From positions 53,462 through 117,461 of the forward strand of contig JAJVIP010000017.1 in NCBI GenBank assembly GCA_022072025.1: 64,000 bases of DNA. Reading direction: 5' to 3'. Origin of the DNA: Elusimicrobiota bacterium. GTDB taxonomy: Bacteria; Elusimicrobiota; Elusimicrobia; F11. Below the pieces are notes generated by a model. That model was not told the origin of the DNA. It did not search any database and worked only from the letters and a program-made list of their open reading frames with translations. The number at the start of each line of letters is the position of its first letter. The first letter of the stretch is position 1. The translations under genes were made by a program, and so were the position numbers. Of this stretch, positions 967 through 60,323 are shown piece by piece.

Positions 967-1069
967 GCGAAATGACATAAGGAGGAGAATCGGCGATAAT
1001 CCCCTGAAATACCCCCCCCAAATCAGCGCGTTTTCGCGCCTCCCCGCTTCACCTCTGCTTCATCCCACA

Positions 1070-1107
1070 TGTTCCGGAACATGTTCCTGTTCTGGTGTTC
1101 TGGAACA
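1070..1107. promoter_or_regulatory. Array of TGTTC/GAACA half-sites (candidate operator): a perfect palindrome TGTTCCGGAACA followed by TGTTCC, TGTTCTGG and TGTTCTGGAACA
   Basis: Read directly in the 206-bp intergenic region upstream of the 1172 CDS. Confidence 0.4.
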
Positions 1108-5950: not shown

Positions 5951-5993
5951 TTTGGATCTTGCATGAGGGAAGCTTACCCCTTAAACTACTTTC

Positions 5994-6419: not shown

Positions 6420-6478
6420 ACCTCACTCGACACAATCGCTCCTCTCCCAAAATTCCTCAGATATGCTAATTAAGCCCC

Positions 6479-6856
6479 ATGCCTCTCGACAAATCACATA
6501 CCTATGTCTTCCGAATGGGATCGGATAACCAAATACGGCTTTTTTGGGACGGCTCATTTTGGCAATATGAATTCCTGGCGGGGGGAGTTCTCTTTGATCA
6601 ATTGACCTGCCATGACGAAAACGAACTTGAAGGAGCGGTGACGGTCCACGGTCTCACTCTTGAAAAATTTTCAATTGATCATGACCAAGCCAGCGCAGAG
6701 TACAGTGAAAAAATTAAAACCAAATTGGCCCAATTAACTGCGAATAACATTCACCCCTGTCCCAAACATGGGCTTATTTCAAAAAACAGCGATGGCAGTT
6801 GCGAGGCTTGCCTCAACATTGATTATCCCGATGATCACAAAGGAACAGAAGGCTGA
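6479..6856 (+). CDS. Hypothetical protein with a C-terminal Cys-rich segment (CPKHG...CEAC)
   Basis: 125-aa ORF. No recognised domain. Confidence 0.3.
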   Translation: MPLDKSHTYVFRMGSDNQIRLFWDGSFWQYEFLAGGVLFDQLTCHDENELEGAVTVHGLTLEKFSIDHDQASAEYSEKIKTKLAQLTANNIHPCPKHGLISKNSDGSCEACLNIDYPDDHKGTEG

Positions 6857-6859
6857 AGG

Positions 6860-7723
6860 ATGAAAAGAGTTCTTTTCATTTTGGCCGTCGCAATTCTGGT
6901 TATCAAAGAAACCGCGCAGGCGCGGCCCTTGCTTGTCGAAGAAGTCTCGACTGTTGGGAAAAAATCATTTGAAACCACCATCTCATTCTCACATCGGATC
7001 GATCAATTCAACACCGCCCCTCAGGTGACCTATGAAACATTTCAACTGCCCCTCACGTTGCGCCTGGGTCTTTCAAAATCTTCTGAATTTGGTTTCGATT
7101 TCCAATACATTCACCAAAAACTGAAACAAGGATCTGCAGAATATTCAGGGAGCATCAATGGCCGATTTTCACCTTTCGTTAAAATTGCTCCTTGGAAATT
7201 ATTGGCTTTAAAATTTCTTTATCATCCCAGCACTCCGGAAGAAACCGAACAGGAACTTCAAGTGGCGACCGGCGAGGATTTTGAAGCCATCGCGTTATTC
7301 CAAATCCCCACGAAGTGGCCATTAACGTTCAATATTGGGTATTTAACTCGAGGAAGGTACAACACCAAATTCGGAGTTCAAAACGGGCCCATCTATGGCG
7401 TGGATCCCGGGAATATTTTTGAGTCCAAACTGAGCCTCGAAGTTCCGCTCAAATTTAACCTGTCTTTGTTAACCGAAACCGCTTATTACAACAGCCAAGA
7501 TACCTATATTTCAAACCAGCAGGTTCCCAGTTCAGCGGCTGAAGCGATGGACGTTTTGCTGGGACTCAATTGGGCCTACAAGGGATGGAATATTGGATCG
7601 GGTGTGGCCTGGGGCTTGTTGGAAGAGAAATACACCAGCTTTAATTTGGAAAGGGGGGCGGGCGATGTCATGTATAAACTGAATATTGGCTACAAATTAT
7701 CCCCCAGGAACCCAACGAAATGA
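6860..7723 (+). CDS. Hypothetical secreted protein, possibly an outer-membrane beta-barrel
   Basis: Signal peptide MKRVLFILAVAILVIKETAQA. Alternating hydrophobic pattern. Confidence 0.4.
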   Translation: MKRVLFILAVAILVIKETAQARPLLVEEVSTVGKKSFETTISFSHRIDQFNTAPQVTYETFQLPLTLRLGLSKSSEFGFDFQYIHQKLKQGSAEYSGSINGRFSPFVKIAPWKLLALKFLYHPSTPEETEQELQVATGEDFEAIALFQIPTKWPLTFNIGYLTRGRYNTKFGVQNGPIYGVDPGNIFESKLSLEVPLKFNLSLLTETAYYNSQDTYISNQQVPSSAAEAMDVLLGLNWAYKGWNIGSGVAWGLLEEKYTSFNLERGAGDVMYKLNIGYKLSPRNPTK

Positions 7724-8493
7724 CTTTCAACAATCTCGCAAGGAATGGATTTTTTCTGGCGCTATTGGGTGGAGGTCTCCTCTCCTGCCAAAAAAAGGAC
7801 GAACCCAATAAAATTTTGGACCCTCTGCCCCTTAATTCAACTCAAACTTGCGTGCCCGGACAATTGGGGCAAGCTTGGTTTGTCATGAAACGAGATTGTT
7901 TAAAGGTTTTGATTCCGGTCATCAATCTAACCACCATCCCCAATTCCAGTTTTCCACAGGTCTCCGGCCCTGATGCAATGTCTCAATACACCTTTCAAAC
8001 CTCTGGCGATCGATATGGGACAGCGACCTATACCATTCGCTTCTATAATGAGAGCGGCGTTGTAATTGACCCTATTTTGACCAATACCTCCACTTCCACA
8101 CTCAAAAGTATAACTGTTCAAGTTGTTGGGGGGTCTTCAAAAGTCACCTACACCGAAGCTCTGACCTTGACGTTCGAAACAGCGGGTTTGCTCAGTTCCC
8201 ATTTACGGTTAACAGGAACTTCTTCGATCAGTGACAATCCAGTCACGAACACCCTTAACTTTACATTCTCCTTACCGGGCCCCAGAGTCGCCTTTGAAGG
8301 CTTAATTGACGGGGAGGTAACTGCAACTGGAACGGGGCCCAACTCACAAACCACCGCACTAAACCTCACTTTTTACGCGGATCATACCGCCAATGGAAGC
8401 ATTGCCTGGGAAGATTTAAGTGGGGGAATTCACTATCAAGACAATGGCGTGGGATATGTCGTCACCAATCTCTTTAGGCTTTTACTGGAATAA
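7720..8493 (+). CDS. Hypothetical lipoprotein
   Basis: Lipobox LLSC near the N-terminus. Start overlaps the upstream stop (ATGA). Thr/Ser-rich. Confidence 0.4.
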   Translation: MTFNNLARNGFFLALLGGGLLSCQKKDEPNKILDPLPLNSTQTCVPGQLGQAWFVMKRDCLKVLIPVINLTTIPNSSFPQVSGPDAMSQYTFQTSGDRYGTATYTIRFYNESGVVIDPILTNTSTSTLKSITVQVVGGSSKVTYTEALTLTFETAGLLSSHLRLTGTSSISDNPVTNTLNFTFSLPGPRVAFEGLIDGEVTATGTGPNSQTTALNLTFYADHTANGSIAWEDLSGGIHYQDNGVGYVVTNLFRLLLE

Positions 8494-8500
8494 TTAACCT

Positions 8501-8686
8501 GAATAATTCGGTTGAACAGCCATTACCGTCTATCAACAATGAATATTTTAGTGCCGTCATCCCGGCATGCTTTCTGGCCGGGATCCAGGTTTTCTTCATG
8601 GGGAAAACCTGGGCCCCGGCCAAAAGATTGCCGGGGCGACAGTGTCTTGTGCAGTACTTTTAGGTACGCTTCAACTGAATTATTTG
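8501..8686. mobile_element. MITE-like intergenic repeat, copy B (about 186 bp), with imperfect TIRs GAATAATTCGGTTGAAC / GCTTCAACTGAATTATT
   Basis: Shares the 70-bp core GGCCAAAAGATTGCCGGGGCGACAG(T/C)GTCT(T/C)GTGCAGTACTTT(T)AGGT with copy A. Contains a CCCCGGC-N9-GCCGGGG hairpin. Confidence 0.6.
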
Positions 8687-8709
8687 AGTTAACCTTCCTG
8701 GTCTTCTTT

Positions 8710-8738
8710 TGTGGATACTGTGGATAACTCTGTGGAGA
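8710..8738 (+). promoter_or_regulatory. Three direct repeats TGTGGATA / TGTGGATA / TGTGGAGA, directly followed 4 bp downstream by a sigma70-like -35 TTGACG, upstream of the cyclase gene
   Basis: Read directly. Spacing between repeats is 9 and 12 bp. A candidate transcription-factor binding array. Confidence 0.35.
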
Positions 8739-8842
8739 AAGGTCTTGACGGGTTTCCCTATGAAAGGTATGAATTGATGTTCCATTTTTATTTTAGCGTT
8801 TGAATTGGTGACAACTTAACCCTCAGACAGGAGACCCCCTCC

Positions 8843-10996
8843 TTGATGATGTCAGTATTAGAGATTCGCCATATCTTGACGTTTGTTATTTTGTTCACAG
8901 CGCTTGTAAACCTGGCGCTGGGTGGGCTGGTTTTTATGGACAGTCCACGACGAACGGTGAACCGTCTTTTTGCGGTATTGACCACTATTTTGTTTTTTAC
9001 AGGTTTGTCTTTTATTGGTCTCAATTACGCCAACACCCCTTTTGTTTCCCTCATATGGTCCCGGGTCTACATCGTTGGACTCCTGTTCGTTTCTCCCTTG
9101 TATTATCATCTGGTTCTCGGCAGCATTGGGGCACAACATAAGGCCCAAAATAATTTACTTTCAGGATTTTTCGAGCGAGTTAAGCAATTGGCCTATGTGT
9201 TTAGCGGGGGCTGGTTACTGTTGATATTGGGGGGACTCACACCCCATCAGTTGGCCAAATTTGCCTTCTTTTCAGTACCGAATGTGGGAAAACAATTTTG
9301 GGTGGCCGCTGTTTTGTTCGGCATTCTTGTCTTGATCGCCTTCACACTTTTGGCACGGCAAACCAAAGAGTCCAAAGACCCCACCCAGAAAAGTCGGTTG
9401 ATGTATATGTTGTTTGGTTCCGGGATTATGGCAACCTTTGTTCTAATGATCCTACCCATGGTTTTCTGGGGGGGCGTTGATGCCAGCTGGATCTTTCCTG
9501 GCGCCCACATCGCCTCGCTTCTTTGTGTCACCCTCATTGCCTACTCCCTGACCACCAGTCATCTTTATCACTTCTCTGAATTACTAAGAAAAACATTGGC
9601 CTTCCTCGTCATGACCTTCATCTTGTTGAGTGTTTTCGGAGGAACACATCTTCTTTCTAGGAATTTGTTGTTTCCATACTTGCCCAACAGTGACTTCTTT
9701 TCGCTGGGACTCTCCTCTATTTTCATGGCGCTCTTGTTTCACCCTTTGCGCTACCGTGTCCAAAACATGGTGGATCGTATATTCTTCTCTCAGAGATACG
9801 ATCAAATGCAACGCCTCCGCGGACTCTCCCGTCGCGTTCTCTCATCAGCGGATCGTGATGAACTGCTCAATATTTTTTTCTCCAGCCTTCAAAGCATTGG
9901 CTTTGGTTCCATCAGTCTCATGTTAAAAGATCCTCAAAAATCCATTTTTCAAATTAAAAAAGGTGTGGGTTTATCCGAAAGCGCGGAAGGATTTTTCCTT
10001 CGGAATGATTCGCTGCTGATTCAACATGTCCGCGAAGAGAAAGGGGAACTCATCAGGGACGAAGTCTTGCGTCGCATACTCACCGACTGGGAACGGCAAG
10101 CCATCAGTGATGAAATGGAAGTTCTCCAAGCCGAGATTGCTTTTCCTCTGTTTTCAACCAGAAGACGAGCTCTCTTTGGCGTGATCACGCTCGGCAATTC
10201 CGAATTGGGTTATTCCTCTTACAAAGGAAGAAACATTTTTTGGCTCAAGGCTCTCATCGATAACGCGGGTATCATGTTGGATAATTTTTATCATCAAGAT
10301 TTCGCGAACGCGTTGGTCCCTTACGTGGGAAAAACCTGGGCGGTCGAAATGCGGCGCAACAAAGAAGGGTTTCGAGAACGCTTGGCCGGCCACCGCACCT
10401 GGGTGACGGTTCTTATGGTTGACATACGACATTTCACCCCGCTGTCCGGCCGATTGGATCCAAGAGAAGTGGTGGAACTCCTTAAGGATTTTCGTTCGCG
10501 GGTGGCCCCGGTGGTGTATAAAAATCAAGGCACCATTGATAAGTTCATAGGAGACGCCATTATGGTCGTGTTTGGTTTGCCCATTCTCCCCAAATTGTCC
10601 AACCCTGATTTAAATGCCGTCAAATGCGCCCTGGAAATCATGAAGGAAATTGACGGACTCAATCACGTGCGACTGCAAGCCGGAAAGGAACCTATTTCAA
10701 TTGGAATCGGCGTGTCATCGGGAGAGGTGATCGCTGGAAACGTGGACTCTGGCGATCGAGTGGAATATACGGTTATTGGAGACGCGGTTAATATGGTGGC
10801 ACGAATTGAAGACCTGGCGGGCGACAACCAAATATTGCTTTCACCCGCCACTTACAACCAAGTAAAAGAAATGATTATGGCCAAAGCTTGGCAACCAAGA
10901 TTTCTAGCTGGGTTTGAACAAGCCATTATGCTTTACGAACTTTCTTCCATGCTTCAATTGGAATCTGAAACACAACCGTTGGCCTCCAACCAATAA
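8843..10996 (+). CDS. Membrane-anchored class III adenylate/guanylate cyclase with a polytopic N-terminal domain
   Basis: About 8 predicted TM helices at the N-terminus. C-terminal CYCc motifs include VTVLMVDIRHFTPLS, FIGDAIMVVFG and TVIGDAVNMVARIE. Confidence 0.8.
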   Translation: MMMSVLEIRHILTFVILFTALVNLALGGLVFMDSPRRTVNRLFAVLTTILFFTGLSFIGLNYANTPFVSLIWSRVYIVGLLFVSPLYYHLVLGSIGAQHKAQNNLLSGFFERVKQLAYVFSGGWLLLILGGLTPHQLAKFAFFSVPNVGKQFWVAAVLFGILVLIAFTLLARQTKESKDPTQKSRLMYMLFGSGIMATFVLMILPMVFWGGVDASWIFPGAHIASLLCVTLIAYSLTTSHLYHFSELLRKTLAFLVMTFILLSVFGGTHLLSRNLLFPYLPNSDFFSLGLSSIFMALLFHPLRYRVQNMVDRIFFSQRYDQMQRLRGLSRRVLSSADRDELLNIFFSSLQSIGFGSISLMLKDPQKSIFQIKKGVGLSESAEGFFLRNDSLLIQHVREEKGELIRDEVLRRILTDWERQAISDEMEVLQAEIAFPLFSTRRRALFGVITLGNSELGYSSYKGRNIFWLKALIDNAGIMLDNFYHQDFANALVPYVGKTWAVEMRRNKEGFRERLAGHRTWVTVLMVDIRHFTPLSGRLDPREVVELLKDFRSRVAPVVYKNQGTIDKFIGDAIMVVFGLPILPKLSNPDLNAVKCALEIMKEIDGLNHVRLQAGKEPISIGIGVSSGEVIAGNVDSGDRVEYTVIGDAVNMVARIEDLAGDNQILLSPATYNQVKEMIMAKAWQPRFLAGFEQAIMLYELSSMLQLESETQPLASNQ

Positions 10997-49161: not shown

Positions 49162-50376
49162 ATGAAATCTCGTGTTCTCTTGTTTATCTTAGCTTCAATG
49201 CTGAGCCATATATCCATGGCTGGCCCTCAATACATTCCAGTCATCAACGGTCTTTTCACAACGGGACAATGGTATTTTGAAGGCGATAAAAGTGAGTTGG
49301 GTGGAAATGCCGCGATCACGTTCGTTCCTGCCCTCAAGTACTCCGATAAATTCACACTGATTCCTACTGTACAAAGCTATTACCATGGCACACGCACCGC
49401 GGAAGAGTTGGCGGGGGGAAATACTTTATTTCAAGATACCTGGGACAATGGCATCGGAGTCAAAGCTGTCCATTCATTGAATGAAAAATGGAACATCAAG
49501 GAAAATATAGGCGCTCGTTTTAAATGGTTCCGTGAGACCACCGATGAACGATGGACCCATGGACTCTATGATTACCGAATTCTTAATGCGGGCTTGGAAG
49601 CGGAACGAAAGTGGGGGAAAAAAACCAGCATCGCGGCGGGGTATGATATTTCTCTTCTCCAATTTCCCAACTATGTTTCCTTGGAGTCCAGTCAAAGCGA
49701 GGATCGTTCCAGAGAATATGCGGGTGAAAATGTTCTCGATACCCGCAGCCATCTTTTTTCCCTTCGGATCAAGGCCCCGCTTTTTTGGGGACTCTCCACC
49801 TCACTGAACTCATTTTTAACCCCTCGATATTACACCGATCAACATGTGGTTCAATTAACAGGTCTTTTGTCAGCCACAACACGAGATGACCTTTTTTCCA
49901 GCAACACCCTCTCGATCGATCGGGTATTTACCCTCTTTCGAAAAACGAAACTCATCTCGACCGTTATCGTTGGACACAACAGCCTCGATTCCAATCAAAA
50001 CCATTATGACGCCAAGCAAACTTACTTCGCGGCCAACTATTACGACTACGATCAAAATATCGCTGGTCTCCAAATGAACTACGCCTTTGGCAGCAAAATG
50101 CAAAGTCCCATGCTGATCAACTTGGGATACAACTATTCTCATCGCAACTACCGTTCTAGAACCATCCAAGACGCGGATGGAGCCTATTTGAATGAAAAAC
50201 TCTATTTGATCGAACAAGCCATTAATCTTGGTTTTAGTTATCCGCTTGCAAAAAATTTCAGAGTCAAAATGTCCACCACTTTTGCCCAAAGCAAATCCAA
50301 CAACAATTTTGAATCACTCTATCGATACAACTATCACAACTCGGAATATCAATTTGGATTCACTTATGATTATTAA
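49162..50376 (+). CDS. Outer-membrane beta-barrel protein of unknown function
   Basis: Signal peptide. Tyr/Gly-rich alternating strands. C-terminal aromatic ...FGFTYDY. Good RBS GAGGGG. Confidence 0.45.
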   Translation: MKSRVLLFILASMLSHISMAGPQYIPVINGLFTTGQWYFEGDKSELGGNAAITFVPALKYSDKFTLIPTVQSYYHGTRTAEELAGGNTLFQDTWDNGIGVKAVHSLNEKWNIKENIGARFKWFRETTDERWTHGLYDYRILNAGLEAERKWGKKTSIAAGYDISLLQFPNYVSLESSQSEDRSREYAGENVLDTRSHLFSLRIKAPLFWGLSTSLNSFLTPRYYTDQHVVQLTGLLSATTRDDLFSSNTLSIDRVFTLFRKTKLISTVIVGHNSLDSNQNHYDAKQTYFAANYYDYDQNIAGLQMNYAFGSKMQSPMLINLGYNYSHRNYRSRTIQDADGAYLNEKLYLIEQAINLGFSYPLAKNFRVKMSTTFAQSKSNNNFESLYRYNYHNSEYQFGFTYDY

Positions 50377-53300
50377 TAAACGGAGTTTAACCGGTTTAAT
50401 TTTAAATTTATCCCTACTCGCTGTGATGGCTCATGCAACTCCCTCTGACATTGCCGATTTAACAGCCACGACGGGTTCAAACCCCGGCACAGTGACTCTC
50501 AATTGGTCCGCCCCCAACGGCGGAGCCACTCGGTACATCATCAAATACGCTCCAAGTTCCTCTTTAATTTCAACGGAGTCCCAATTTTTATCCGCCTCTC
50601 ACATTGAGGCGCCCCCCATTAATGCACAAGCGCCAACGCCAGCCAGTGGGGGTTCACCCGAAACGCTGACGATATCAGGATTACAGAACGGGGTCGTGTA
50701 TTCATTCTCTATTAAATCGGAGGACAGCAGTTTGATTCGCTCCAATCTCTCCAATGGGGCCACCGCCATGGCCGCTGTTCCTTGCGCTGCGAACGCCAAT
50801 GACGGAAAAGGAAGCGGCGCCATTCTTCCAGCTTCTATCCCCAAAGGACAAGTCGTTCTAACCACCGTCACTTTCACGGTGGACCCGGCCGGAATCGGGA
50901 CCGGAGGAAAAATCTCTCTCCAAGTCCCAGATTTTTTCCCTTTTTTGAGCACCGCCACTTCGAACCAAGAATCCTCTGGATATATTTCTTACACCCACAC
51001 GGGAGGAGCCAACTTGGTTGTTTCCTCTCTCAGTGAACAAGTCATCACATTAAAAGTCGACTCGGGAAGTATGAGCAGCGGTGACCTTGTGAAATTCTTC
51101 ATCTATGCTCACATCTGTTATACCGGGAACAATTCATCCCTTCAATTTCGATTGGCCTCTCAACAAGGAAGTTGCGGAATCCTCAGAGAAATTGCCAGTC
51201 AACCCGTTGTCTCAATTACAAATGGGGGCCCCGCCTTTATTGCGTTTGACCCTTATGAGATTGTGGCGAAGGTCGATGCCATCACCTCTTTCAAAGTCGT
51301 TTCTTTTGATGGATGTGGATATCCAGTCAACTTGTCTCAAACAACAGCCTTTACATTGGAAACCTATCGATATGATTCGAATTCCTCCAATTATATTGTG
51401 GATAGTAACGCATCTCTTTCACTCTCTTCAGATATGTCCTCTTCAAACACCAACATTGGATCTGACATAACCAGCGGGCAATCGGAGAGAACCGCTTACT
51501 ATCGGATCACAACGGCCTCGGCCAAACCCAACTATATTGTATTGACCTACGATGATTTAACTCCACCTCACAACTCCATCTCCTATATCGCTTCAATTGT
51601 TCCACTCACTGTTGGAATTGCGTCAAGTTCAGTCGATAAAGGAACTCTCAATCAAACTCAAAAAACAGTCACCTTTGATCCAGGTAAAAATGAACGTGTT
51701 TATTTCAACTTTTCACTTCCCGAAAATCTTTCCTGGAAAATCATGATATCGAGCAATGGTTTTTCCTCTTTCACCTATATTATTTATGGGAATGGAAAAA
51801 ATGTTCGCACCTCCTGGGATGGGTATGCGGATCCGTCCCCGGGGGAACCTCCGCAAATTGCTCCAGCAGGAACCTATTCCATACGGATACAAATTGGGCC
51901 GGACATAAAAGATGAAACCTGTTCCGTGACTCTCCAATCAGCCGGCATTCAAGGGACGTTGGTAAAAGCGGGGACAGCAACCGCATTGGAAAACGTCGAT
52001 ATCGAATTTTTTGGACCCACGCCCCGCTACACCCGCTCTCGGACGAATGGAACCTTTGAAACGGGAGGGCTCAACTCAGGATCTTATAAGGTTCGGTTCT
52101 TTAAACCTGGTTATATTTTCAAGGAGGTTAATGCGACCGTAACTTCCGGCAACTCAACCAATTTGGGAACCGTTGAACTGACCGAAGCGGCTATTTTAAG
52201 GCTTTATTTCAGCCGTTCAGCTTCTGGCAGTCTGCCGGATATCAATGGATCAGTGCGTGCCTACAACTCTGATTATTCCAAACAATCCTTTGGGTCCGTT
52301 CGGTTTAGATCGGGAAGCACCACTTCAGATGCCGGCGATGATTGGAACTCGACTCCCACTCCTTATACCGACTTATATCTCGAACAAAATGTGGCCTATT
52401 CAGTCCAGGTTGAAATTCCCGGGTTTGCTCCCCTTACCTTCAGTAACACATTAACCTCCGCGGGTGTTACCACCAGCACTCCAACGTTGACGACAAAACC
52501 CACAATAGAGGGGACCGTAACCATTCCAGCGGGGGGGAATGCCCAAGGTCTTTGGATCTCTGTTGAAGCCGCAATTGATGCAAACGGAGATTTAAGTCCG
52601 GACTCTACGGATCCCTCCAACCGTTTATACGGTGGCAGCTATCTTCCACCCAATGAAACCACGGGAATTTACCGTGTTTTCGGATCGACCAATGCCAAAT
52701 ATGTGCTAACGGCATTTGCGCCGGGCTTCGTCCAGAGAAAAATCAATGTCACCGTCAATGGAAGCGATGTCAACAATGCCAATTTCCCCATTTTCAGCGA
52801 GGGGGGAAATATCTCAGGAACAATCACAGTGAATGGAGACTCCACCATTCTTGATGGCGATGACAACGATGGAAAATTTGAAATCCCCATCAATGCCTAC
52901 TCACCTTCAACCGGACGAGGTAGTTTCGCACAGATTGAGCTAAATGAAAATGCGTCCTCCACCAGCGGCGCATACCAATTAAAAGGACTGGAGGATGGAA
53001 TTTATAACGTCTCGGTTTACCAGTCGGGGTTTGGGTTGGTCCCCCCTGGACCCAAAAGCGTAACGGTATCCGGAGGAACCGGGACACTCAATCTCACTTT
53101 GGAACGCTTCAGCGGACAATTCACTGGGACCCTGACCTTGCCGACAGGCCAATCCAATTATGGCACTGTCGAAGTCGATGCCCTGTCGTTTAATCACTTT
53201 GGACAAGGAAGTCTGACTGGCGTCATTTCAGGGAACACCTATACCATCAGCAATCTCGGAACAGATTTTTACACCATTCGCGCTCGCTACCCCACGACAG

Positions 53301-56300
53301 GTTTGGTGGTCACCACCCAAGGGCAAGTTAAAAATGGAAGTACCACAACAAAGAATTTAGATTTATCAGGCGCCACCTATTCGGTCTCCGGCCGCGTCAC
53401 CTCATCAGCCAGCGCGCCGTACACACTTTCCTTTATTGTGAACAGATCCACTCCCACCCAAGCCTATACACCTTCGGGACCAAGCACCCTTAATGCCAAT
53501 CGAATAACGGCTCAAAGACTTCGCAACCGAGACTTTAATGATGGGGGCGGTGGCCCCAGTGGTGGGATTTTCTATGACCCCAAAGAATCATTCATTGGGT
53601 TCTACAACGCCAATGGAGATTACAGCATCAATGGACTCGCGGAGGGTTCGTATCGCCTGACCACAAACGGGGAAATGGATGGCGATCTTTCCAATGGGAA
53701 TGAAATCAGCAAATTGAACAAGGTTTTGTACGTGGGTCAAAATATGACCGGACAAAATTTCAACCTGACCGATGGATACAAAATCAGCGGTACGATTCGC
53801 GTTGCCAGTGGCCAATCAGAATCAGGCCGGAGCTTGAATGTTCAGGCGAGAGATAGTGAAGGGTCAACGGTCGCCCAACAATTTATTTATCTCTCGGGGA
53901 CTTCCGCTGAATTCTCTTTGACCCACATTCCACCAGGACAATATGTGGTAACGGTTTCAGATACCTATCCGAGAAAATATTCCTCTAAGGATCTCCAAGT
54001 TGAAATTATTTCCTCCGATATTTCCAACAAAGAGATCAGCTTGCTTAATTCGGGAATTATCCGAGGAAAATTACAAGTTAAGAAGTCCGGTATTGTTATC
54101 TCGGCCGCCAACTACTCTCAATATCTTTCCGAATCTTTTCGAATTGAAGCGAGAAGCAACCCTTACATTCCAGGTGGTTTTGGCCGAGCTGAAAACCCGA
54201 TCATTGACGCGAATGGATATTTCAATATCGCGGTCAATCCAGGGACTTACGACGTGGTATTGGGATTGGATGGAGGGATATCGGATTCCGATATCGCGCA
54301 AGGAAAAAAAGCCTTCGTTAATGTGACCAAAAGCGCCATTTCAGTCTCAGGAGGAGAAATCAAGGATTTGGGCGTGATTCCCCTTGATGAAGGAATTGAA
54401 ATGACCGGGACGGTGGTGGACGCCTCCGGCACGCCGCTCTCCAATATTCGGGTCGAAGCTGAAAAATCAAACCAATCCGGTCACAACGATGAACTTTTGG
54501 AAACCTTCACTGATTCAAACGGAAAATATGTGATGAGAGGAATCGATTCAACGGGAGCGCGTTATTATCATTTCTTTGCCGCGCCTCGTCCTGATCCATT
54601 TGATCAACGTTTCAGTGGGGATACAACAGCCTCCCGCTATGCGGAATCGATCAAAGGGCCGATAGATACTCAGAGCGTAACCGAAGTCAATTTCACACTT
54701 TCTTTGGCCAATAGCGGGATCACTGCCACCATTACCACCGCCGACTCAGGCGTTCCCCAGGTTCCCTTTGGTGAATCGGGGTCTCTACCTGGGGCCATCG
54801 CGATCCTCAACAAACAACCTGAGATTCCCGTCGATAACCCACTGGGAAATATTGAAGAATTTGTGAGTCCCAGCGGCACCCTCGATGTTAAAGGGCTGGC
54901 AGCGGGTGTTTATGATCTCTACATCCTGGCCAAGGGATACGGCAGCTACTCAAAGAAAAACATTTCAGTTTCGGAAGGGGAAACCGTTGATTTGGGGACC
55001 ATTGTTCTTCCCACGGGATACACCCTTTCAGGAAAATTGACAAAACCCAATGGAGACCCGGTGACCACCTCTGATGTTGAGGACATCATCGCGGCCAGAA
55101 ATAATTTCAACGAAATAGCCATTGCCCAGTTGGATCAAGATGCCTCCAACAACATCATCAAATACTCCATATCGGGCATTCAACCCAACAAGGCCTACTC
55201 GATTATTGGATTTGGTCGATCGAATTCCGTGAGCAATTTGGCCTCCGATATCACGTTAACATCGGACACGGAATTGGATCTTACTTTTGAAGCACCCGCC
55301 CCGGGTGTACTCAACCAAATTGTCAAAAATAACGATGGTAGTTTCACCTTGTTATTCAAATTTGAAGAAACGTTGAGGAATTCGGACATCGACATTTCCG
55401 GAACAATTGGAATTAAAGACGACAATGAAATTCTTTCATTGACATCAGGAAACAGCGCTCTTGGAGAAACCACCATTTCATCGGACAGAAAGGAAGTATC
55501 GACCACCTACACACCTGCTGGAGGAGAAACTTCTTTCACCCTTCGTGTAACCGCCACATTTGTTTCCCAAGACAGCGAAACCGGCGCGAATCAAACCATC
55601 GACACCACCTTCACCTTTTATGCCGGCGTGTCCAAACAAAACAGCGCCACGGTGAGCAATGCCAGCGGAGGCGAGGTGGATTTGTCACAGGCCAACGATT
55701 CCACGAGTTTCACGGCTCCGGCCGGATGGCAAGGAGAAGATGAAGACAGCGCTCCGCAAGTCACCTTGAAGGCCGCAGCAACCCAAAGCGAGTTGGAGAC
55801 CTCGGCCTCCATGGTGGGATCCAAACTGGGCGCGTTGAGGGTGGCTGAGAAATTGGGGCTTCATGCCTACCCAAGTGAGATGGCCAAAGCCATGTCCAAA
55901 CTCAAAAAATTGGACGTTTCACCTCTCAGCTCGTTCTATGACATCTTTTTACCGGCGGGCGTCAGTCACTTTTTCCCTGAAGGAAAAGAAGCGCGACTCT
56001 GTTTGAGTTACGACTCCAGCGCCACTGATCCCTATTCGCTGAACGTTTATTATTACAACTCAACCACCGATGAATATTTATTGGAGAGCGAAAACAAATC
56101 GGTGGATACGGTTAACGAAAAAATTTGCGTCAGCATATCCCACGCGTCCATCTTCACTGTTTTAAATTCAAGCGTTTCCATCATCACCGGAGATGGTTAT
56201 TCCGGAGAGTTATCGATAATTAATTTCCCCAATCCGTTCAATTTAAAATCGAAAACCGTGACCCTTCAAAACCCCGGTTCCGCCAGCGCGTCACAGGTGA

Positions 56301-56548
56301 TCGATGGAACCATGATCAAACTGAGCGTTCCCACCACCATTTCCGGGACGGCTGAAATCAGCATTTTCGATGTCACCGGCGCCCTGGTAAGAACAATAAG
56401 ACACAACGTCACCGGCGGTTCTCATTATTATCTGGAATGGGATGGACTCAACGAGCGAGGGCAAAAGGTCGCCTCCGGCACGTACATTGCGCGCTTAACT
56501 GTTGGTGGCGGGAACGAAAAATTCTTTAAGATGGCGGTGCTCAAGTGA
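50366..56548 (+). CDS. Giant cell-surface protein (about 2060 aa): Fn3, multiple CarbopepD-regulatory-like/Ig-like domains, and a C-terminal T9SS type-A-like sorting domain (Por_Secre_tail-like)
   Basis: Signal peptide LAVMAHA|T. Fn3-like TVTLNWSAPNGGATRYIIKYA. Repeated GxV.D..G.PL....V.. units. C-terminal NFPNPFN...ISIFDVTGALVRTI...WDGLNERGQKVASGTYIARL...KMAVLK. Confidence 0.7.
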   Translation: MIINKRSLTGLILNLSLLAVMAHATPSDIADLTATTGSNPGTVTLNWSAPNGGATRYIIKYAPSSSLISTESQFLSASHIEAPPINAQAPTPASGGSPETLTISGLQNGVVYSFSIKSEDSSLIRSNLSNGATAMAAVPCAANANDGKGSGAILPASIPKGQVVLTTVTFTVDPAGIGTGGKISLQVPDFFPFLSTATSNQESSGYISYTHTGGANLVVSSLSEQVITLKVDSGSMSSGDLVKFFIYAHICYTGNNSSLQFRLASQQGSCGILREIASQPVVSITNGGPAFIAFDPYEIVAKVDAITSFKVVSFDGCGYPVNLSQTTAFTLETYRYDSNSSNYIVDSNASLSLSSDMSSSNTNIGSDITSGQSERTAYYRITTASAKPNYIVLTYDDLTPPHNSISYIASIVPLTVGIASSSVDKGTLNQTQKTVTFDPGKNERVYFNFSLPENLSWKIMISSNGFSSFTYIIYGNGKNVRTSWDGYADPSPGEPPQIAPAGTYSIRIQIGPDIKDETCSVTLQSAGIQGTLVKAGTATALENVDIEFFGPTPRYTRSRTNGTFETGGLNSGSYKVRFFKPGYIFKEVNATVTSGNSTNLGTVELTEAAILRLYFSRSASGSLPDINGSVRAYNSDYSKQSFGSVRFRSGSTTSDAGDDWNSTPTPYTDLYLEQNVAYSVQVEIPGFAPLTFSNTLTSAGVTTSTPTLTTKPTIEGTVTIPAGGNAQGLWISVEAAIDANGDLSPDSTDPSNRLYGGSYLPPNETTGIYRVFGSTNAKYVLTAFAPGFVQRKINVTVNGSDVNNANFPIFSEGGNISGTITVNGDSTILDGDDNDGKFEIPINAYSPSTGRGSFAQIELNENASSTSGAYQLKGLEDGIYNVSVYQSGFGLVPPGPKSVTVSGGTGTLNLTLERFSGQFTGTLTLPTGQSNYGTVEVDALSFNHFGQGSLTGVISGNTYTISNLGTDFYTIRARYPTTGLVVTTQGQVKNGSTTTKNLDLSGATYSVSGRVTSSASAPYTLSFIVNRSTPTQAYTPSGPSTLNANRITAQRLRNRDFNDGGGGPSGGIFYDPKESFIGFYNANGDYSINGLAEGSYRLTTNGEMDGDLSNGNEISKLNKVLYVGQNMTGQNFNLTDGYKISGTIRVASGQSESGRSLNVQARDSEGSTVAQQFIYLSGTSAEFSLTHIPPGQYVVTVSDTYPRKYSSKDLQVEIISSDISNKEISLLNSGIIRGKLQVKKSGIVISAANYSQYLSESFRIEARSNPYIPGGFGRAENPIIDANGYFNIAVNPGTYDVVLGLDGGISDSDIAQGKKAFVNVTKSAISVSGGEIKDLGVIPLDEGIEMTGTVVDASGTPLSNIRVEAEKSNQSGHNDELLETFTDSNGKYVMRGIDSTGARYYHFFAAPRPDPFDQRFSGDTTASRYAESIKGPIDTQSVTEVNFTLSLANSGITATITTADSGVPQVPFGESGSLPGAIAILNKQPEIPVDNPLGNIEEFVSPSGTLDVKGLAAGVYDLYILAKGYGSYSKKNISVSEGETVDLGTIVLPTGYTLSGKLTKPNGDPVTTSDVEDIIAARNNFNEIAIAQLDQDASNNIIKYSISGIQPNKAYSIIGFGRSNSVSNLASDITLTSDTELDLTFEAPAPGVLNQIVKNNDGSFTLLFKFEETLRNSDIDISGTIGIKDDNEILSLTSGNSALGETTISSDRKEVSTTYTPAGGETSFTLRVTATFVSQDSETGANQTIDTTFTFYAGVSKQNSATVSNASGGEVDLSQANDSTSFTAPAGWQGEDEDSAPQVTLKAAATQSELETSASMVGSKLGALRVAEKLGLHAYPSEMAKAMSKLKKLDVSPLSSFYDIFLPAGVSHFFPEGKEARLCLSYDSSATDPYSLNVYYYNSTTDEYLLESENKSVDTVNEKICVSISHASIFTVLNSSVSIITGDGYSGELSIINFPNPFNLKSKTVTLQNPGSASASQVIDGTMIKLSVPTTISGTAEISIFDVTGALVRTIRHNVTGGSHYYLEWDGLNERGQKVASGTYIARLTVGGGNEKFFKMAVLK

Positions 56549-57459
56549 AGCGCTCCACATGGGGATTGATCCTGCTGCTTTTTTCTGCCCCATGTTTTGC
56601 GGTGGACAACAACGCGGGAACCAGTGGAGCGGCCTTCTTGAAAATCGGAGCGGGAGCCCGACCCACCGCCATGGGAGACGCCTTCGTGGCCATTGCCGAT
56701 GACGTGAACGCCCTTTATTTCAATCCAGGCGGACTGGCCCTCCAAGAGCAAAAAGAATTCACTGCGCTGCATACCCAATATCTTCAAGGACTCAATTACA
56801 ATTTTGCGGCGCTAAGCATCCCCACTAAAAATGGAGGTTGGGGAATTTCAGGTGCCACTCTTCAGACTGATGATATTGACCGTCGAGGCTCGGATGAATC
56901 GCTTACCGGATCTTTTCAAAATCAGGACGCTGGTTATGGACTCACTTATGCCCACAAAATAGGGGAACACAGTGGATGGGGGGGAACTCTCCGTTGGGTC
57001 AGGTCTGAAATTGACAATGCCTCTGCCTCTTCTTGGTCGGCCGACCTTGGAATCTTTAAACGATTTGAAAACAATCCATTAACCTTGGGGCTGGCCGTCA
57101 AACATATGGGGCAAAAATTAAAGTTCATAGAAGAAAGCGATCCGCTTCCGCTGACTATTGACGGTGGGGTGGGATATCGCCTTTTCAATGATAGATTCAC
57201 CATGGCCACCAATCTCAAAAAATCCCGCGATCGTAACTTAGAATTCGGACTGGGCTTTGAATGGCAAGACGCGGTCGCTGACAAGGTCCGTTATGCCACG
57301 CGCGTGGGTTTTAATGGAGCCAACACCGACGCTGAGGGGGCCAATGGAATCACATTGGGAGCAGGATTGGGCTATCGACAAATGGATTTTGACTTTGCCT
57401 GGGTCCCCTTTGGAGATCTTGGAAACACCTTCCGATACGCCGCCCACTTCAAGTTTTAA
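56545..57459 (+). CDS. FadL/TodX-like outer-membrane beta-barrel protein (possible PorV/PorQ-type partner)
   Basis: GTGA start/stop overlap with the giant gene. Signal peptide. The N-terminal GAGARPTAMGDAFVAIADDVNALYFNPGGLA matches the FadL-family GRAxSGEGAIADDAxNVSRNPA pattern. C-terminal F. Confidence 0.5.
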   Translation: MKRSTWGLILLLFSAPCFAVDNNAGTSGAAFLKIGAGARPTAMGDAFVAIADDVNALYFNPGGLALQEQKEFTALHTQYLQGLNYNFAALSIPTKNGGWGISGATLQTDDIDRRGSDESLTGSFQNQDAGYGLTYAHKIGEHSGWGGTLRWVRSEIDNASASSWSADLGIFKRFENNPLTLGLAVKHMGQKLKFIEESDPLPLTIDGGVGYRLFNDRFTMATNLKKSRDRNLEFGLGFEWQDAVADKVRYATRVGFNGANTDAEGANGITLGAGLGYRQMDFDFAWVPFGDLGNTFRYAAHFKF

Positions 57460-57491: not shown

Positions 57492-59522
57492 ATGGCCCTG
57501 GGGAAACCGATAAAAATATCCATTGCTCTTCCTTTGTTGATGCTCTTTGGTTTCACTGTTTGGGCCTCCTCCCGGCGCCCAGCACCCAAGCCATCTGATC
57601 ATAAAGAACAGCAAACTCCCAAATTAAGCTCGGAGGAGTCCGCTTCCGCTTCCACCTCTATGCAGGGGCCTCCTTCCGCCTACACCTCTCCTGTGATGCC
57701 CACGGGCGGATGGCCGGAATTGGCGATTTTTATTGCGGTCCACCCGGAAGGAAGCGCGGGAGATATCCTCGAATTTCTTGAAAACCAACCCAACCTCAAC
57801 CTCACCCTTATTTTTCCGCCTTCTTATTTCAACAACGAAACAAACCGCGATTTGTTAGGCGAATTTTCTCTTCGCCAAAGTTCAAAAACCCTAGAGGTGG
57901 CCCTTACTTTAGAGAACGAACCCAATTTGCCCCTATTGGACAATTTGAGTAACGCTGGAAACACCGTTCAAAAATGGGGTTTCAACTATGCCTGGCCTGA
58001 AGACGTGGCGGCGCAAATCGCCCGGGGAAGCGCTCGATATCAAAAAAGATGGGGGCATCTGCCTTCCGGTCTAACCCCACCCTATCTCAGTCTCACCGAA
58101 TCCGTGGTGAATACGGTAAAGAAATTTAGATTGAATTGGGTTTTGGGACGTCCCCAGGATCGGTGGGGAATTCGATTTTATGGAGGGACGACGCTGGTGA
58201 TTCCGCCGAAACCTCCCACCATTGATGAATTGACGCTGGGTGGAAAAGTATGGGCAGAAAAAATGGCGGATTGGACCTTGGGTTATCCATTTGTGTTCAT
58301 TGACACCACACAACTCGAAGATCCCAAAGCGGAAATTTATTACCTAGAAGAGGTCGTAAAAAAAATCACCCCCAAAAAACCTCAGCGGTTGTTCTTAACT
58401 GCAGAAACCTGGACTCAATCTCTGGGAGATGCTTTTGATCTTCCAAAAGATATCACCCCCTTTGAAAATGATTTTTCTTCTTGGGTCACATCCTCCCAAC
58501 AAAGACGCGCGTGGGCGGCTATTGCTGATGCGAGATTGGCCATCGAAACCTATCAAAAATCAGGACGAGCCAATCTGCAGAGACTGGACGCGGCCATAGA
58601 AGAAATGGCCAACGCTCAATCAGGCGAATTTTTACTCCGTTTGGGATCGATCGCTCCTCCCACAGGGCCTCTTTCAGACCGTCCGGTTGATGAACGAAAT
58701 TTCCTGGCAACACTGGGCAATGTTTACCGTCTTTGTGAAACGGCTGTTCCATCCAATCTCAACACCTGGTTTGCCACTCGATCCGCCATAAAGTCAACTC
58801 CCAAATCGGATTCAATGGAGGGCCCTTTTTTCATTGAAGGCCCCAACAGCCTCACCTGGAATGATTCCAAAAACGACGACGATGGAAATGGCAGTTACAC
58901 CTATCCCGTGGGCCCCTATCCCAAAGGAATGTTTGACTTAAAAGAATTAACTCTTTCTTGGAACGATGAAGAAATTAATATCACGGCCAGTGTTCAAGAA
59001 CCTTTTCTCGGAAAACCCCTTTCCGTTCTTCCGGCCATCGATCTCTATATCGATGTCAATCGCCTCCCAAACGCCGGCAGCACCAATGGACTGGGAGGTC
59101 GGGGAAAAACAAATACCGCTCGAGAGGCGGCCTGGGAATATGCCGTGGCGTTTTCGCCTCGCTCCGCGACGATCTATCAGTCCATCCCAGGAGAGTCGCC
59201 ACGAACGCTGGGTAAAAAATCGGTCGACGCCAGCGGGAAAAGTTTTTCAACCACTTTCCCGCGATCCCTTTTAAGAGGAGACCCAAGACAATGGAGATTC
59301 TCAGCTGGGCTCATGGGCATTGAGAACAGTCAAAAACAAGAAACACCGACTCCTGTTTCAATTGTCTACAACGCCACAGAAAAAAATTTTGGGGGCGCTC
59401 AAATCAAACAATCGGCGCCTTATATCGACATCCTCTCACCCTCAATTGAGGATCAAACAGATCGAATGAAGAGTCATTTTGAGGGGGGGCCCCTCAGCCT
59501 GCCGTTCGTTGAGGCTCAGTAG
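57492..59522 (+). CDS. Secreted protein with a glucodextranase-like C-terminal domain (likely a polysaccharide deacetylase/GH57-type enzyme)
   Basis: The C-terminal DDDGNGSYTYPVGPYPKGMFDLKELTL...IDLYIDVN resembles the glucodextranase C-terminal binding module. The N-terminal catalytic part is not identified. Confidence 0.4.
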   Translation: MALGKPIKISIALPLLMLFGFTVWASSRRPAPKPSDHKEQQTPKLSSEESASASTSMQGPPSAYTSPVMPTGGWPELAIFIAVHPEGSAGDILEFLENQPNLNLTLIFPPSYFNNETNRDLLGEFSLRQSSKTLEVALTLENEPNLPLLDNLSNAGNTVQKWGFNYAWPEDVAAQIARGSARYQKRWGHLPSGLTPPYLSLTESVVNTVKKFRLNWVLGRPQDRWGIRFYGGTTLVIPPKPPTIDELTLGGKVWAEKMADWTLGYPFVFIDTTQLEDPKAEIYYLEEVVKKITPKKPQRLFLTAETWTQSLGDAFDLPKDITPFENDFSSWVTSSQQRRAWAAIADARLAIETYQKSGRANLQRLDAAIEEMANAQSGEFLLRLGSIAPPTGPLSDRPVDERNFLATLGNVYRLCETAVPSNLNTWFATRSAIKSTPKSDSMEGPFFIEGPNSLTWNDSKNDDDGNGSYTYPVGPYPKGMFDLKELTLSWNDEEINITASVQEPFLGKPLSVLPAIDLYIDVNRLPNAGSTNGLGGRGKTNTAREAAWEYAVAFSPRSATIYQSIPGESPRTLGKKSVDASGKSFSTTFPRSLLRGDPRQWRFSAGLMGIENSQKQETPTPVSIVYNATEKNFGGAQIKQSAPYIDILSPSIEDQTDRMKSHFEGGPLSLPFVEAQ

Positions 59523-59555
59523 GCGAAAAGGTGGGATTTTAAAGATGGAATTGTT

Positions 59556-59628
59556 TGGAGCTGATCGGGATCGAACCGACGACCTCCTGCATGCCATGCA
59601 GGCGCTCTCCCAGCTGAGCTACAGCCCC
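59556..59628 (-). tRNA. tRNA-Ala (anticodon GGC), 73 nt, with the G3:U70 identity pair. No encoded CCA.
   Basis: Manual fold of the reverse complement GGGGCUGUAGCUCAGCUGGGAGAGCGCCUGCAUGGCAUGCAGGAGGUCGUCGGUUCGAUCCCGAUCAGCUCCA gives canonical D, anticodon (loop AUGGCAU) and T arms. Confidence 0.85.
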
Positions 59629-59680
59629 TCGAAGGCGGCGGAGAGTAACATATTTTGTGGAGAGCGTCCGCCGTGGCGGA

Positions 59681-59710
59681 AGGTCGTCGGTTCGATCCCG
59701 ATCAGCTCCA
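59681..59710 (+). repeat. Perfect 30-nt inverted copy of the tRNA-Ala 3' end (T-arm plus acceptor strand), followed by ACC
   Basis: 59681-59710 is the exact reverse complement of 59556-59585. There is no matching 5' half, so it is not a complete tRNA. Confidence 0.7.
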
Positions 59711-59756
59711 CCTTTCGCCTTTCATCCCGCCTCATTAAATCGGGACATCTTCCATC

Positions 59757-60323
59757 ATGAAAATTCTCAGCGGCACCGCACGGGGACGAACCGTGCGAAC
59801 CCTTCCCAACAATCCGCTTGTTCGACCGATCCTTGCGCGAATCAAAAAATCTGTCTTTGACATCATCCGGCCTCGAATAGTGGGAAGTCATTTTTTGGAC
59901 CTCTATGCTGGAACGGGTTCGGTGGGACTTGAAGCCTTATCGGAGGGAGCCAGTCATGCCACCTTCGTTGAACAAGAGCCGAAATGCGTTCGATTAATCC
60001 ATGAAAACATCACGCTGTTTAAATTCGACAGCCAAGCTTCGGTCTTCCGAATGAGTGCCGTTGGGGACCTCTCCTTTTTACCGAAAAATTTCGATTTGAT
60101 CTTTATGGGGCCTCCTTACAAAGACGCCCAAAAAAATCCCCTGGCTTTGGTGACACCCACTCTCGAAAACATCTCGAAATATTCCTTGTTAAATCCAAAA
60201 GGTTTGGTTATTGCCCAGCACCACAAAAATGAAAAGGTGACCTCCTTCGGCCCTTGGAACTTGAAGCGGCAAGAGAAATACGGGGACACCTTGGTCACTT
60301 TTTTTACCCTGACTCCCGCATGA
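59757..60323 (+). CDS. rsmD: 16S rRNA (guanine966-N2)-methyltransferase RsmD
   Basis: LDLYAGTGSVGLEALSEGA SAM motif and FMGPPY DPPY-like motif. Confidence 0.8.
   Translation: MKILSGTARGRTVRTLPNNPLVRPILARIKKSVFDIIRPRIVGSHFLDLYAGTGSVGLEALSEGASHATFVEQEPKCVRLIHENITLFKFDSQASVFRMSAVGDLSFLPKNFDLIFMGPPYKDAQKNPLALVTPTLENISKYSLLNPKGLVIAQHHKNEKVTSFGPWNLKRQEKYGDTLVTFFTLTPA

Follow-up and report, generated by a model that had tools for sequence, protein, structure and literature searches.

The tRNA-Ala(GGC) locus and its partial copy

We analysed a stretch of 64,000 nucleotides from an Elusimicrobiota bacterium (GCA_022072025.1, contig JAJVIP010000017.1, positions 53,462 to 117,461 of the forward strand; hereafter the window), in which an intact tRNA-Ala(GGC) gene on the minus strand is accompanied by a partial copy of the same gene on the plus strand. 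In this copy the anticodon arm is replaced by a short G+C-rich palindrome, and similar palindrome-tagged copies, some of them together with a small gene for a GIY-YIG nuclease, were found next to tRNA genes elsewhere. The features of the locus are, in positions of the window:

59556-59628, minus strand: intact tRNA-Ala(GGC) gene without an encoded CCA (ARAGORN; Rfam tRNA model, 62.4 bits)
59629-59656, minus strand: upstream leader of the tRNA and promoter-like block, in minus-strand reading ACAAAATATGTTACTCTCCGCCGCCTTCGA
59659-59666, plus strand: D-arm remnant GGAGAGCG, the 3' side of the D arm; 8 of 8 bases match tRNA positions about 19-26
59667-59680, plus strand: 14-nt palindrome TCCGCCGTGGCGGA in place of the 17-nt anticodon arm
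59681-59710, plus strand: variable loop (AGGTC onward), T arm, 3' acceptor strand and discriminator base; 30 of 30 bases identical to the tRNA
59711-59712, plus strand: CC after the discriminator A of the copy, read from the sequence
59556-59590: left arm of an inverted repeat, the 3' part of the tRNA gene
59676-59710: right arm of this repeat, formed by the 3' part of the copy

The tRNA gene is the single tRNA called by ARAGORN in the 64-kb window and the sole Rfam match at gathering scores over the same length. Its sequence is 100% identical to that of the tRNA-Ala(GGC) genes of three related loci, L003, L005 and L006 (contigs and loci other than the window are designated by L numbers). The block in front of it (59629-59656) is homologous to a block of L006, AAATATGTTAGTCTCCGCCACCTT, which there precedes a tRNA-like copy, and to the L003 block AATATGTTATATCCG. 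Position and conservation suggest a promoter role for this block; a scan for consensus promoters gave no match there or elsewhere around the inverted repeat. A first-pass annotation of the window, made without database searches, had described a complete minus-strand tRNA-Ala(GGC) lacking CCA together with a perfect 30-nt inverted copy of its 3' end that terminates in ACC, and all of this holds: the exact segments lie at 59556-59585 and 59681-59710, the A of the copy is followed by CC, and the tRNA gene continues with AAC.

The copy is longer than had been noted, reaching from the D-arm remnant to the discriminator base and covering tRNA positions about 19-73. The earlier statement that there is no matching 5' half stands for the 5' strand of the acceptor stem (GGGGCTGTAGCTCAGCTGG), which occurs nowhere in the window except in the tRNA itself, and a search for the missing piece GGGGCUG... 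likewise returned nothing in the window beyond this gene; it does not stand for the remainder, as the copy extends in the 5' direction into the D-arm remnant and the palindrome. The CC at 59711-59712 may be the remnant of a donor-encoded CCA or may be due to chance; copies at the other loci described below have the same 3' continuation as their own tRNA. Judged from its sequence, the plus-strand fragment is a non-functional partial copy of the adjacent tRNA-Ala(GGC): it lacks the 5' acceptor strand, its anticodon arm is replaced by the palindrome, it was not called as a tRNA by ARAGORN, and the Rfam list at E<=10, from which one lower-scoring match of the same clan had been dropped, contains no tRNA match on the plus strand. 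The copy alone folds no better than shuffled sequences (z = -0.5), and the window locus itself is probably inert.

Palindrome-tagged tRNA copies at other loci

The segment 59663-59685 of the window fits a pattern in which GAGCG and AGGTC enclose TCCGCC-NN-GGCGGA where the anticodon arm would be. When the window was scanned with TCCGCCRYGGCGGA and one mismatch was allowed, the palindrome at 59667-59680 was the only match in 64 kb, with 0.03 expected; a general repeat family of this genome was discarded as a candidate, since the palindrome occurs only once in the window. Scanning larger collections with the pattern AGCG-TCCGCCNNGGCGGA-AGGTC yielded three stretches in GTDB species genomes, all of them in metagenome-assembled genomes (MAGs) of Elusimicrobia, and ten contigs in a metagenome collection. 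One of the GTDB matches is the L006 contig (also L007), and the other two come from the single MAG fen_1177, where they lie at a tRNA-Pro and a tRNA-Ala(UGC) locus. IMG/VR gave no match to the pattern, and no relative of the GIY-YIG gene described below was confirmed in its viral contigs; a phage origin was rejected on these grounds.

In total, the palindrome was found at the same tRNA position in 13 loci besides the window (Elusimicrobia MAGs and metagenomes). All matches to the pattern lie at most about 300 nt from a tRNA gene, the genes being those for Pro(UGG), Pro(CGG), Thr(GGU), Ala(GGC/UGC/CGC), Met and Val(GAC), and L015 additionally has a tRNA-Ser gene just upstream. The G+C content of the contigs ranges from 33% to 64%. 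The palindrome core occurs about 30 times in 172 kb, compared to 3.7 expected, and is nearly confined to the context of tagged copies. Beside tRNA-Asn and, in an Acidobacteriota MAG, beside tRNA-Arg(ACG), a similar palindrome takes the place of just a part of the anticodon arm. In some copies other arms likewise contain palindromes of this type, namely the D loop and T arm (L010, L018), the T loop (L020), and the D/anticodon stem and T loop (L023), and the number of palindromes varies, with two in L023 and three in L018. At L010 (150-235), hairpins of the form CCCGCC...GGCGGG also replace the D loop and the T arm, as though every loop were being closed, and at L018 (1100-1180, minus strand) several palindromes are surrounded by short tandem duplications, with CAGGCTGGGAGAGCG-TCCGCCGCGGCGGG being repeated. 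As an origin of the palindrome, the correction of a quasipalindrome or hairpin-end repair of the local anticodon arm was rejected because the same 14-mer is present in copies of tRNAs with unrelated anticodon arms.

The copies fall into two kinds. Those upstream of their tRNA keep the complete 5' half (26-28 of 26-28 bases identical) and have a broken 3' part, and those downstream mostly keep 29-40 identical nt of the 3' part (less in L008, L010 and L023) and are truncated in the 5' part. Both kinds are present in L010, L013 and L015, and the unit is repeated in tandem in L011 and L015. Many tagged copies are located only 9-30 nt from their tRNA and have no open reading frame (ORF) in between. 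The window copy conforms to the class in that its retained half is identical to the adjacent cognate tRNA (30 of 30 bases); it departs from it in that a 3'-type copy is expected downstream of the tRNA in the same orientation, and here it lies on the 5' side and is inverted. At all 16 related loci examined the copies are direct with respect to their tRNA, so that the window holds the sole inverted case, in agreement with the earlier remark that this orientation is atypical.

The recurrence at different tRNA species also bears on the proposal, raised in the first-pass annotation, that the fragment resembles the 3' terminus of transfer-messenger RNA (tmRNA), or more generally that it is part of a tmRNA or another RNA mimicking tRNA-Ala, either miniature or in two pieces. 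There is a weak Rfam alignment of the tmRNA model RF00023 to 59557-59713, and the 3' end reads ...GGUUCGAUCCCGAUCAGCUCCACC. The score of this alignment is 21.2 bits against a gathering score of 47, however, and that of the permuted model RF04321 is 14.2 against 47; ARAGORN called the tRNA-Ala(GGC) and no tmRNA in the window. Moreover, the apparent 5' acceptor strand (GGAGCUG) comes from the antisense of the tRNA, through which alone the Rfam match exists, the 3:70 pair would be A:U instead of the G:U of alanine identity, and the 95 nt between the exact arms consist of antisense tRNA, promoter region, D-arm remnant and palindrome, with neither a tag frame nor a pseudoknot region. Homologous copies furthermore derive from tRNAs other than tRNA-Ala (Pro, Val, Met, Thr, Asn and Arg). 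On the basis of the scores, the A3:U70 pair and the non-Ala homologues, a one-piece, two-piece or miniature tmRNA was rejected within the reach of ARAGORN and Rfam, and we regard any such RNA as extremely unlikely.

A small GIY-YIG gene accompanies tagged copies

In five of the 13 loci (L006, L009, L013, L018 and, in degraded form, L015), an ORF of 79-88 amino acids (aa) is located between the copy and the tRNA. Its product consists of the GIY-YIG catalytic domain alone (PF01541, E about 1e-16). The ORF invariably follows a tRNA 3' part and precedes a tRNA 5' part, and its TAG stop codon lies inside that tRNA-like sequence. For a test in the reverse direction, the contexts of GIY-YIG homologues were picked by protein similarity alone, without reference to the palindrome. 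A tagged copy was present in five of the six contexts sampled; the contig of the sixth, L021, ends 80 nt past the ORF. The five are:

L022: tRNA-Asn, ORF, copy with TCCGCCCAGGCGGA
L023: tRNA-Arg(CCG), ORF, copy with two palindromes
L020: ORF followed by a copy resembling tRNA-Pro, whose T loop carries the palindrome
L024, a Candidatus Acidoferrum MAG: tRNA-Arg(ACG), ORF, copy with TCCGCCTGCGGCGGA
L027: unit of ORF and tagged copy as in L024, adjoining an integrase gene

The ORF is hence found at L006, L009, L013, L018, L015 (degraded), L020-L024 and L027. A profile search returned 3,624 family members at E<=1e-10, most of them on very short contigs and with names that include Elusimicrobiota and several Acidobacteriota. 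Among the 120 best homologues, 58 terminate in the in-frame translation of a tRNA 5' half (...SSxG*, ...RP*, ...GL*). The catalytic-type residues are invariant among 13 family members, and this conservation argues for an enzyme that would be active. One subfamily of the element, with about 60% aa identity and the tail TTCGATCCCCTCCAAGGGATC, resides at tRNA-Ala(GGC), (UGC) and (CGC) genes, which have the 5' half in common and neither the anticodon arm nor the 3' part.

Several further observations were made on these genes and their surroundings. Just upstream of the GIY-YIG start, a hairpin, GATCCC-CTCCAA-GGGATC, is conserved in L006 (7084-7107), L009 (about 330-352, minus strand) and L018 (about 1067-1100, minus strand). 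It overlaps the likely ribosome-binding site AAGGGA, which hints at a possible translational control of the nuclease. Most family members are on contigs of less than 2 kb, and the Logan contigs L001 and L002 from the window locus also stop inside the repeat, suggesting that GIY-YIG/tRNA elements routinely break short-read assemblies at tRNA genes. In addition, public gene calls for P0017, P0018, P0031, P0038, P0053, P0071 and P0085 run through the adjacent tRNA or tagged copy, and the resulting spurious N- or C-terminal extensions (for example ...VVGSIPISST..., ...EFPAAAGQ... and ...GRRGDPPE...) are translated T arms and palindrome. Finally, the Acidobacteria-type contig L027 (1000-1520; also L025, L026, L028 and L029) carries a tyrosine integrase and a bare partial 3' piece of tRNA-Arg(ACG), which starts in the anticodon loop and lies directly upstream of the GIY-YIG ORF, with the palindrome-tagged tRNA-Arg copy following. 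No intact tRNA was found within 1.2 kb in L027, and this one site seems to hold a stack of two kinds of tRNA-targeting element.

Orthologous sites and neighbouring genes

The locus in the window is flanked by two protein-coding genes:

57492-59522, plus strand: GH57-like / Glucodextran_C protein, convergent with the tRNA (Pfam PF09985, 9.6e-17)
59757-60323, plus strand: rsmD-type methyltransferase (Cons_hypoth95; PF03602, 6e-44), on the same strand as the copy and starting 46 nt past it

The best match of the GH57-like protein is MCG3205490.1 from an 'Elusimicrobia bacterium' MAG, to which it is 100% identical. In relatives (51-56% identity), the order surface protein, PorV-like protein, GH57-like protein, tRNA-Ala(GGC), rsmD, PD-(D/E)XK and amino-acid kinase is conserved. 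The site between the GH57-like gene and rsmD is occupied in different ways:

L003: promoter-like block and tRNA, without a copy (empty); tRNA on the plus strand
L005: whole promoter-plus-tRNA cassette inverted, without a copy; tRNA on the minus strand
L006: promoter-like block, tagged copy (positions 1-61, palindrome TCCGCCACGGCGGA), 80-aa ORF and intact tRNA; tRNA on the plus strand
L012: tRNA-Ala(GGC), 27 nt, 3'-type copy (TCCGCCGCGGCGGA) and rsmD; copy direct, tRNA on the plus strand
Window: copy resembling that of L012 and cassette oriented like that of L005; tRNA on the minus strand

L012 belongs to a more distant relative, with an rsmD product that is 52% identical. The site is thus polymorphic for the presence of the unit, being empty in L003, occupied in L006, and carrying a solo copy in L012 and the window, and the comparison of L003 with L006 demonstrates gain or loss at one orthologous site. 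The relatives carry either no copy, a direct copy, or a copy together with the GIY-YIG gene, and the scenario considered earlier, in which related genomes would share the same inverted fragment and the structure would be a stable, terminator-like one, does not apply.

Partial 3' copies of tRNA genes are a classic product of integration into tRNA genes, and the annotation had considered an island boundary. The fragment could in this case be the attachment-site (att) scar of a tyrosine-integrase element in the tRNA 3' end, reoriented by a later inversion, and the integrase gene and bare tRNA-Arg 3' piece that adjoin the GIY-YIG unit of L027 would fit such a history. At the window junction, however, the gene order on both sides is conserved in the relatives and neither an island nor an integrase is present, and the island boundary was abandoned. 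Where an att scar would be a direct partial 3' copy bounding an integrase island, the window copy is inverted and bounds none. In contrast to the window copy, att scars show neither homology to the D arm nor a palindrome substituted ahead of the identity block; the copies in the relatives are 9-30 nt from the tRNA and leave no space for an element, and the same 14-mer lies beside at least seven tRNA species. We therefore consider an att scar improbable.

Two observations concern the neighbourhood in a wider sense. In L012, about 4.8 kb with several ORFs (5300-10070; one ORF of 514 aa) separate the end of the GH57-like gene from tRNA-Ala(GGC), which are adjacent in the window and the closer relatives, and this segment may be an insertion upstream of the tRNA. 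Further upstream in the window (50228-57459), a surface protein of 2,106 aa with fibronectin-type, CarboxypepD_reg and FlgD_ig/Por_Secre_tail-type domains is encoded, followed with a 4-nt overlap by a PorV/UPF0164-like protein of 304 aa. This pair of cargo and shuttle in the style of a type IX secretion system is conserved in the relatives, one version of the surface protein having 3,457 aa.

The inverted repeat

A repeat search identified one inverted repeat of 35 nt with 94% complementarity and 85 nt between its arms; the 30 nt given above make up its exact section, whose arms are 95 nt apart. Within the 64-kb window the 22-nt core has exactly two occurrences, and 100 shuffles contained none; the repeat is real beyond chance. 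Outside the main arms there is a further and weaker inverted match (GGCGAAAAGGTGG at 59522-59534 and CCACCTTTCGCC at 59707-59718, with one indel). Its local score of 20 is slightly above a background of 10-16; it might stem from an older inverted duplication that included the 3' flank of the tRNA, or from chance, and was not relied upon.

An inverted repeat next to a tRNA gene could also arise during assembly, by a fold-back or a mis-join at a repeated 31-mer. Logan contig L002 ends at window position 59585 on the left side and L001 begins at 59683 on the right, so that both stop at the repeat, and the middle, 59586-59682, is without independent confirmation. Such stops inside the inverted repeat are expected of a k=31 graph. 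Both outer junctions of the repeat were reproduced in independent Logan assemblies of two runs, SRR10609165 and SRR10609169, the 30-nt repeat is shorter than an Illumina read, and the middle contains the tagged module, which recurs in unrelated assemblies and could not result from a false join of two true tRNA genes. An artefact is hence very improbable.

The repeat itself might have a function, either by flip-flop of the segment carrying the tRNA and its promoter, or as a hairpin that terminates or insulates the surface-protein/GH57 operon from rsmD. The suggestion of the annotation that the arms could pair as a stem is consistent with the predicted fold of a plus-strand read-through transcript (59540-59730), which reaches -108.9 kcal/mol (z = -9.9). 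The cassette orientation does differ among equally related genomes, with plus in L003, L006 and L012 and minus in L005 and the window, and a flip between the arms would, as deduced from the sequence, leave an intact tRNA either way. Yet the inverted cassette of L005 and the direct one of L003 both do without the repeat, which is therefore not needed for either orientation, a flip would alter nothing obvious in expression, and no other locus has an inverted copy. With respect to termination, an intrinsic terminator combines a G+C-rich hairpin with a U tract; the sequence after the hairpin, CCTTTCGCC, has no such tract, and a terminator scan of 59300-59900 found none. At a permissive threshold, Rfam matches were limited to the tRNA and chance-level hits. 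Taken together, we consider a function of the repeat as such improbable. Outside the repeat, a weak match to the Rfam Trp_leader family (59106-59210, minus strand; 21.3 bits against 41, E = 0.16) falls inside the GH57-like coding region and was judged to be due to chance.

Origin of the window copy

By analogy with the loci described above, we consider it somewhat more likely than not that the window copy is what a tRNA-homing GIY-YIG element left behind as a solo relic, and that the inverted repeat came about when the promoter-plus-tRNA cassette was inverted. The mobile unit would consist of a tRNA-like module, with its anticodon arm swapped for the palindrome, and the nuclease ORF. The two layouts in which the unit is found, copy-ORF-tRNA and tRNA-ORF-copy, are circular permutations of each other. 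Entry into a tRNA gene might proceed through homology-directed repair or through recombination. If the crossover falls in the shared 5' half, the outcome would be an upstream copy followed by the ORF and the tRNA; if it falls instead in the shared 3' part, the outcome would be the tRNA followed by the ORF and a downstream copy. Either way the host tRNA would be reconstituted, and the tagged copy would be unable to decode. Homology-directed entry is supported by the occurrence of one ORF subfamily at three tRNA-Ala genes that have only the 5' half in common.

In the window, the ORF would have been lost, leaving a solo 3'-type copy placed just upstream of rsmD like the direct copy of L012. In the simplest history, the cassette would have been inverted relative to this formerly downstream copy. 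Such an inversion would turn the two identical 3' parts into an inverted repeat of 30-35 bp, and the repeat would be a by-product. It could nevertheless permit flipping of the 85-bp segment between the arms, or the formation of a long hairpin in read-through RNA.

Several points weigh against a homing relic. The window has no GIY-YIG ORF next to the duplicated segment, and a tblastn search with the GIY-YIG ORFs detected neither an ORF nor a remnant in it, so that the window is linked to the element by analogy. The loss of the ORF would have to be a very clean one, and the ORF-less copies may be non-autonomous or of other origin. The window copy is the only inverted one among the loci examined, and as identities of the GH57-like protein among the window, L003, L005 and L006 are all similar (54-61%), the history of the inversion is not polarised by the four closest relatives. 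Finally, the palindrome is identical in L014 and L017 (14 of 14 bases), while the spacer and the downstream flank have diverged, and it is still G+C-rich in contigs with 33-35% G+C. Conservation and base composition point to constraint and not to a neutral scar, and the term relic may understate the matter.

The same two properties of the palindrome speak for the main live alternative, namely that the tagged copy is a functional tRNA-like RNA or DNA site of the host or the element, such as an RNA without an anticodon that serves as a decoy, a processing signal or a 3'-end protector, or a palindrome maintained by selection as a site of protein binding or cleavage. The window copy, 46 nt upstream of rsmD and on the same strand, would in this case act in the rsmD leader, and it is in keeping with such a role that the copy lies just upstream of rsmD in both L012 and the window and that the 3' part is identical to the neighbouring tRNA in most loci. 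The core of the palindrome, CCGCGG, is also the recognition sequence of Eco29kI and Cfr42I, two restriction enzymes of the GIY-YIG type. However, the identity of the 3' part is equally well explained by gene conversion with a tRNA 60-100 nt away, and the copy is dispensable at the rsmD locus, since L003 and L005 do without it. Lacking the 5' acceptor strand, it cannot form a tRNA-like acceptor helix; its folding was indistinguishable from that of shuffled sequences, and it has neither an Rfam match nor a promoter consensus. Position and number of the palindromes vary as well, as seen in L020, L023 and L018. We thus regard a functional site as rather unlikely, although it deserves more weight than the att scar or a functional repeat.

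Beyond the relic proposed for the window, the tagged copies and the 79-88 aa GIY-YIG genes might together represent an undescribed, widespread family of minimal mobile elements at tRNA genes, in which the palindrome is an active part and the window a solo, inverted derivative; this is a serious possibility, albeit one that we would not yet call probable. The family would have at least 3,624 ORF members in Elusimicrobiota, Acidobacteriota and probably beyond, and the 5' or 3' half of the tRNA itself would serve as homology arm. As candidate roles, the palindrome might replace the anticodon arm with something resistant to the nuclease, be the site of the nuclease itself, as its CCGCGG core would suggest, stabilise the insertion by breaking up homology, or act as an RNA module or as a means of dimerisation for expressed tRNA halves without an anticodon.

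Implications and comparison with known systems

tRNA genes are classic landing pads for integrase-borne islands. Our analysis points to a second and much smaller class of tenant at these genes, which consists of a bare GIY-YIG catalytic domain and a disarmed tRNA copy. If true, this would account for many unexplained 'tRNA fragments' next to tRNA genes in MAGs and for short breaks of contigs there, it would provide an example of natural homology arms made from the most conserved parts of the tRNA, and it would supply a minimal nuclease and a defined 14-nt palindrome for biochemistry. For the window, a false lead towards a tmRNA or an island boundary is removed, and a 30-bp inverted repeat able to confuse assemblers is noted. 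Full-text searches of the literature found no description of an arrangement of a GIY-YIG gene with a tagged partial tRNA copy. The class is moderately interesting and testable, and the results suggest an apparently undescribed small mobile element at tRNA genes.

Among known systems, the tRNA-like domain of tmRNA (RF00023, RF04321) shares with the window copy a T arm and 3' acceptor strand of the tRNA-Ala type followed by CC. It differs in that the copy stays below threshold on both models, has no G3:U70 pair, tag frame or pseudoknots, and has counterparts of the same architecture with sequences of tRNA-Pro, Val, Met, Thr, Asn and Arg. Similarly, the scars of tyrosine integrases resemble the locus in that a partial 3' copy of the tRNA adjoins the intact gene. 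Unlike these, the window copy is inverted, reaches into the D arm, has a palindrome for the anticodon arm and is accompanied by neither island nor integrase, and in the relatives no more than 9-30 nt separate copy and tRNA. Short G+C-rich palindromic mobile sequences are known as the GC clusters of yeast mitochondria, the double-hairpin elements of Allomyces and the Rickettsia palindromic elements. Like these, the palindrome described here is present at many sites including RNA-gene-like sequence and is G+C-rich in A+T-rich genomes; in contrast to them, it has only 12-15 nt, is found, in the loci examined, nearly only in redundant tRNA copies, and replaces a tRNA arm instead of being simply inserted.

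The closest parallels are free-standing GIY-YIG homing genes that go along with a partial duplicate of a host gene, examples being the mobile ORF in the mitochondrial atp6 gene of the fungus Allomyces and SegB in the tRNA gene cluster of phage T4. As in these systems, an essential gene has a small GIY-YIG ORF next to it and stays functional and intact, with a displaced or carried partial copy adjacent to it, and presence or absence varies at orthologous sites, homology-directed repair being the natural means of spread. The elements described here differ from them in that the targets are tRNA genes of bacterial chromosomes, that the ORF of 79-88 aa is a bare catalytic domain without a DNA-binding domain, and that its stop codon lies inside the tRNA-like 5' half. 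Furthermore, solo copies without an ORF are common, the window has no ORF of this kind at all, and the copy bears, in place of a tRNA arm, the signature G+C-rich palindrome of 14 nt.

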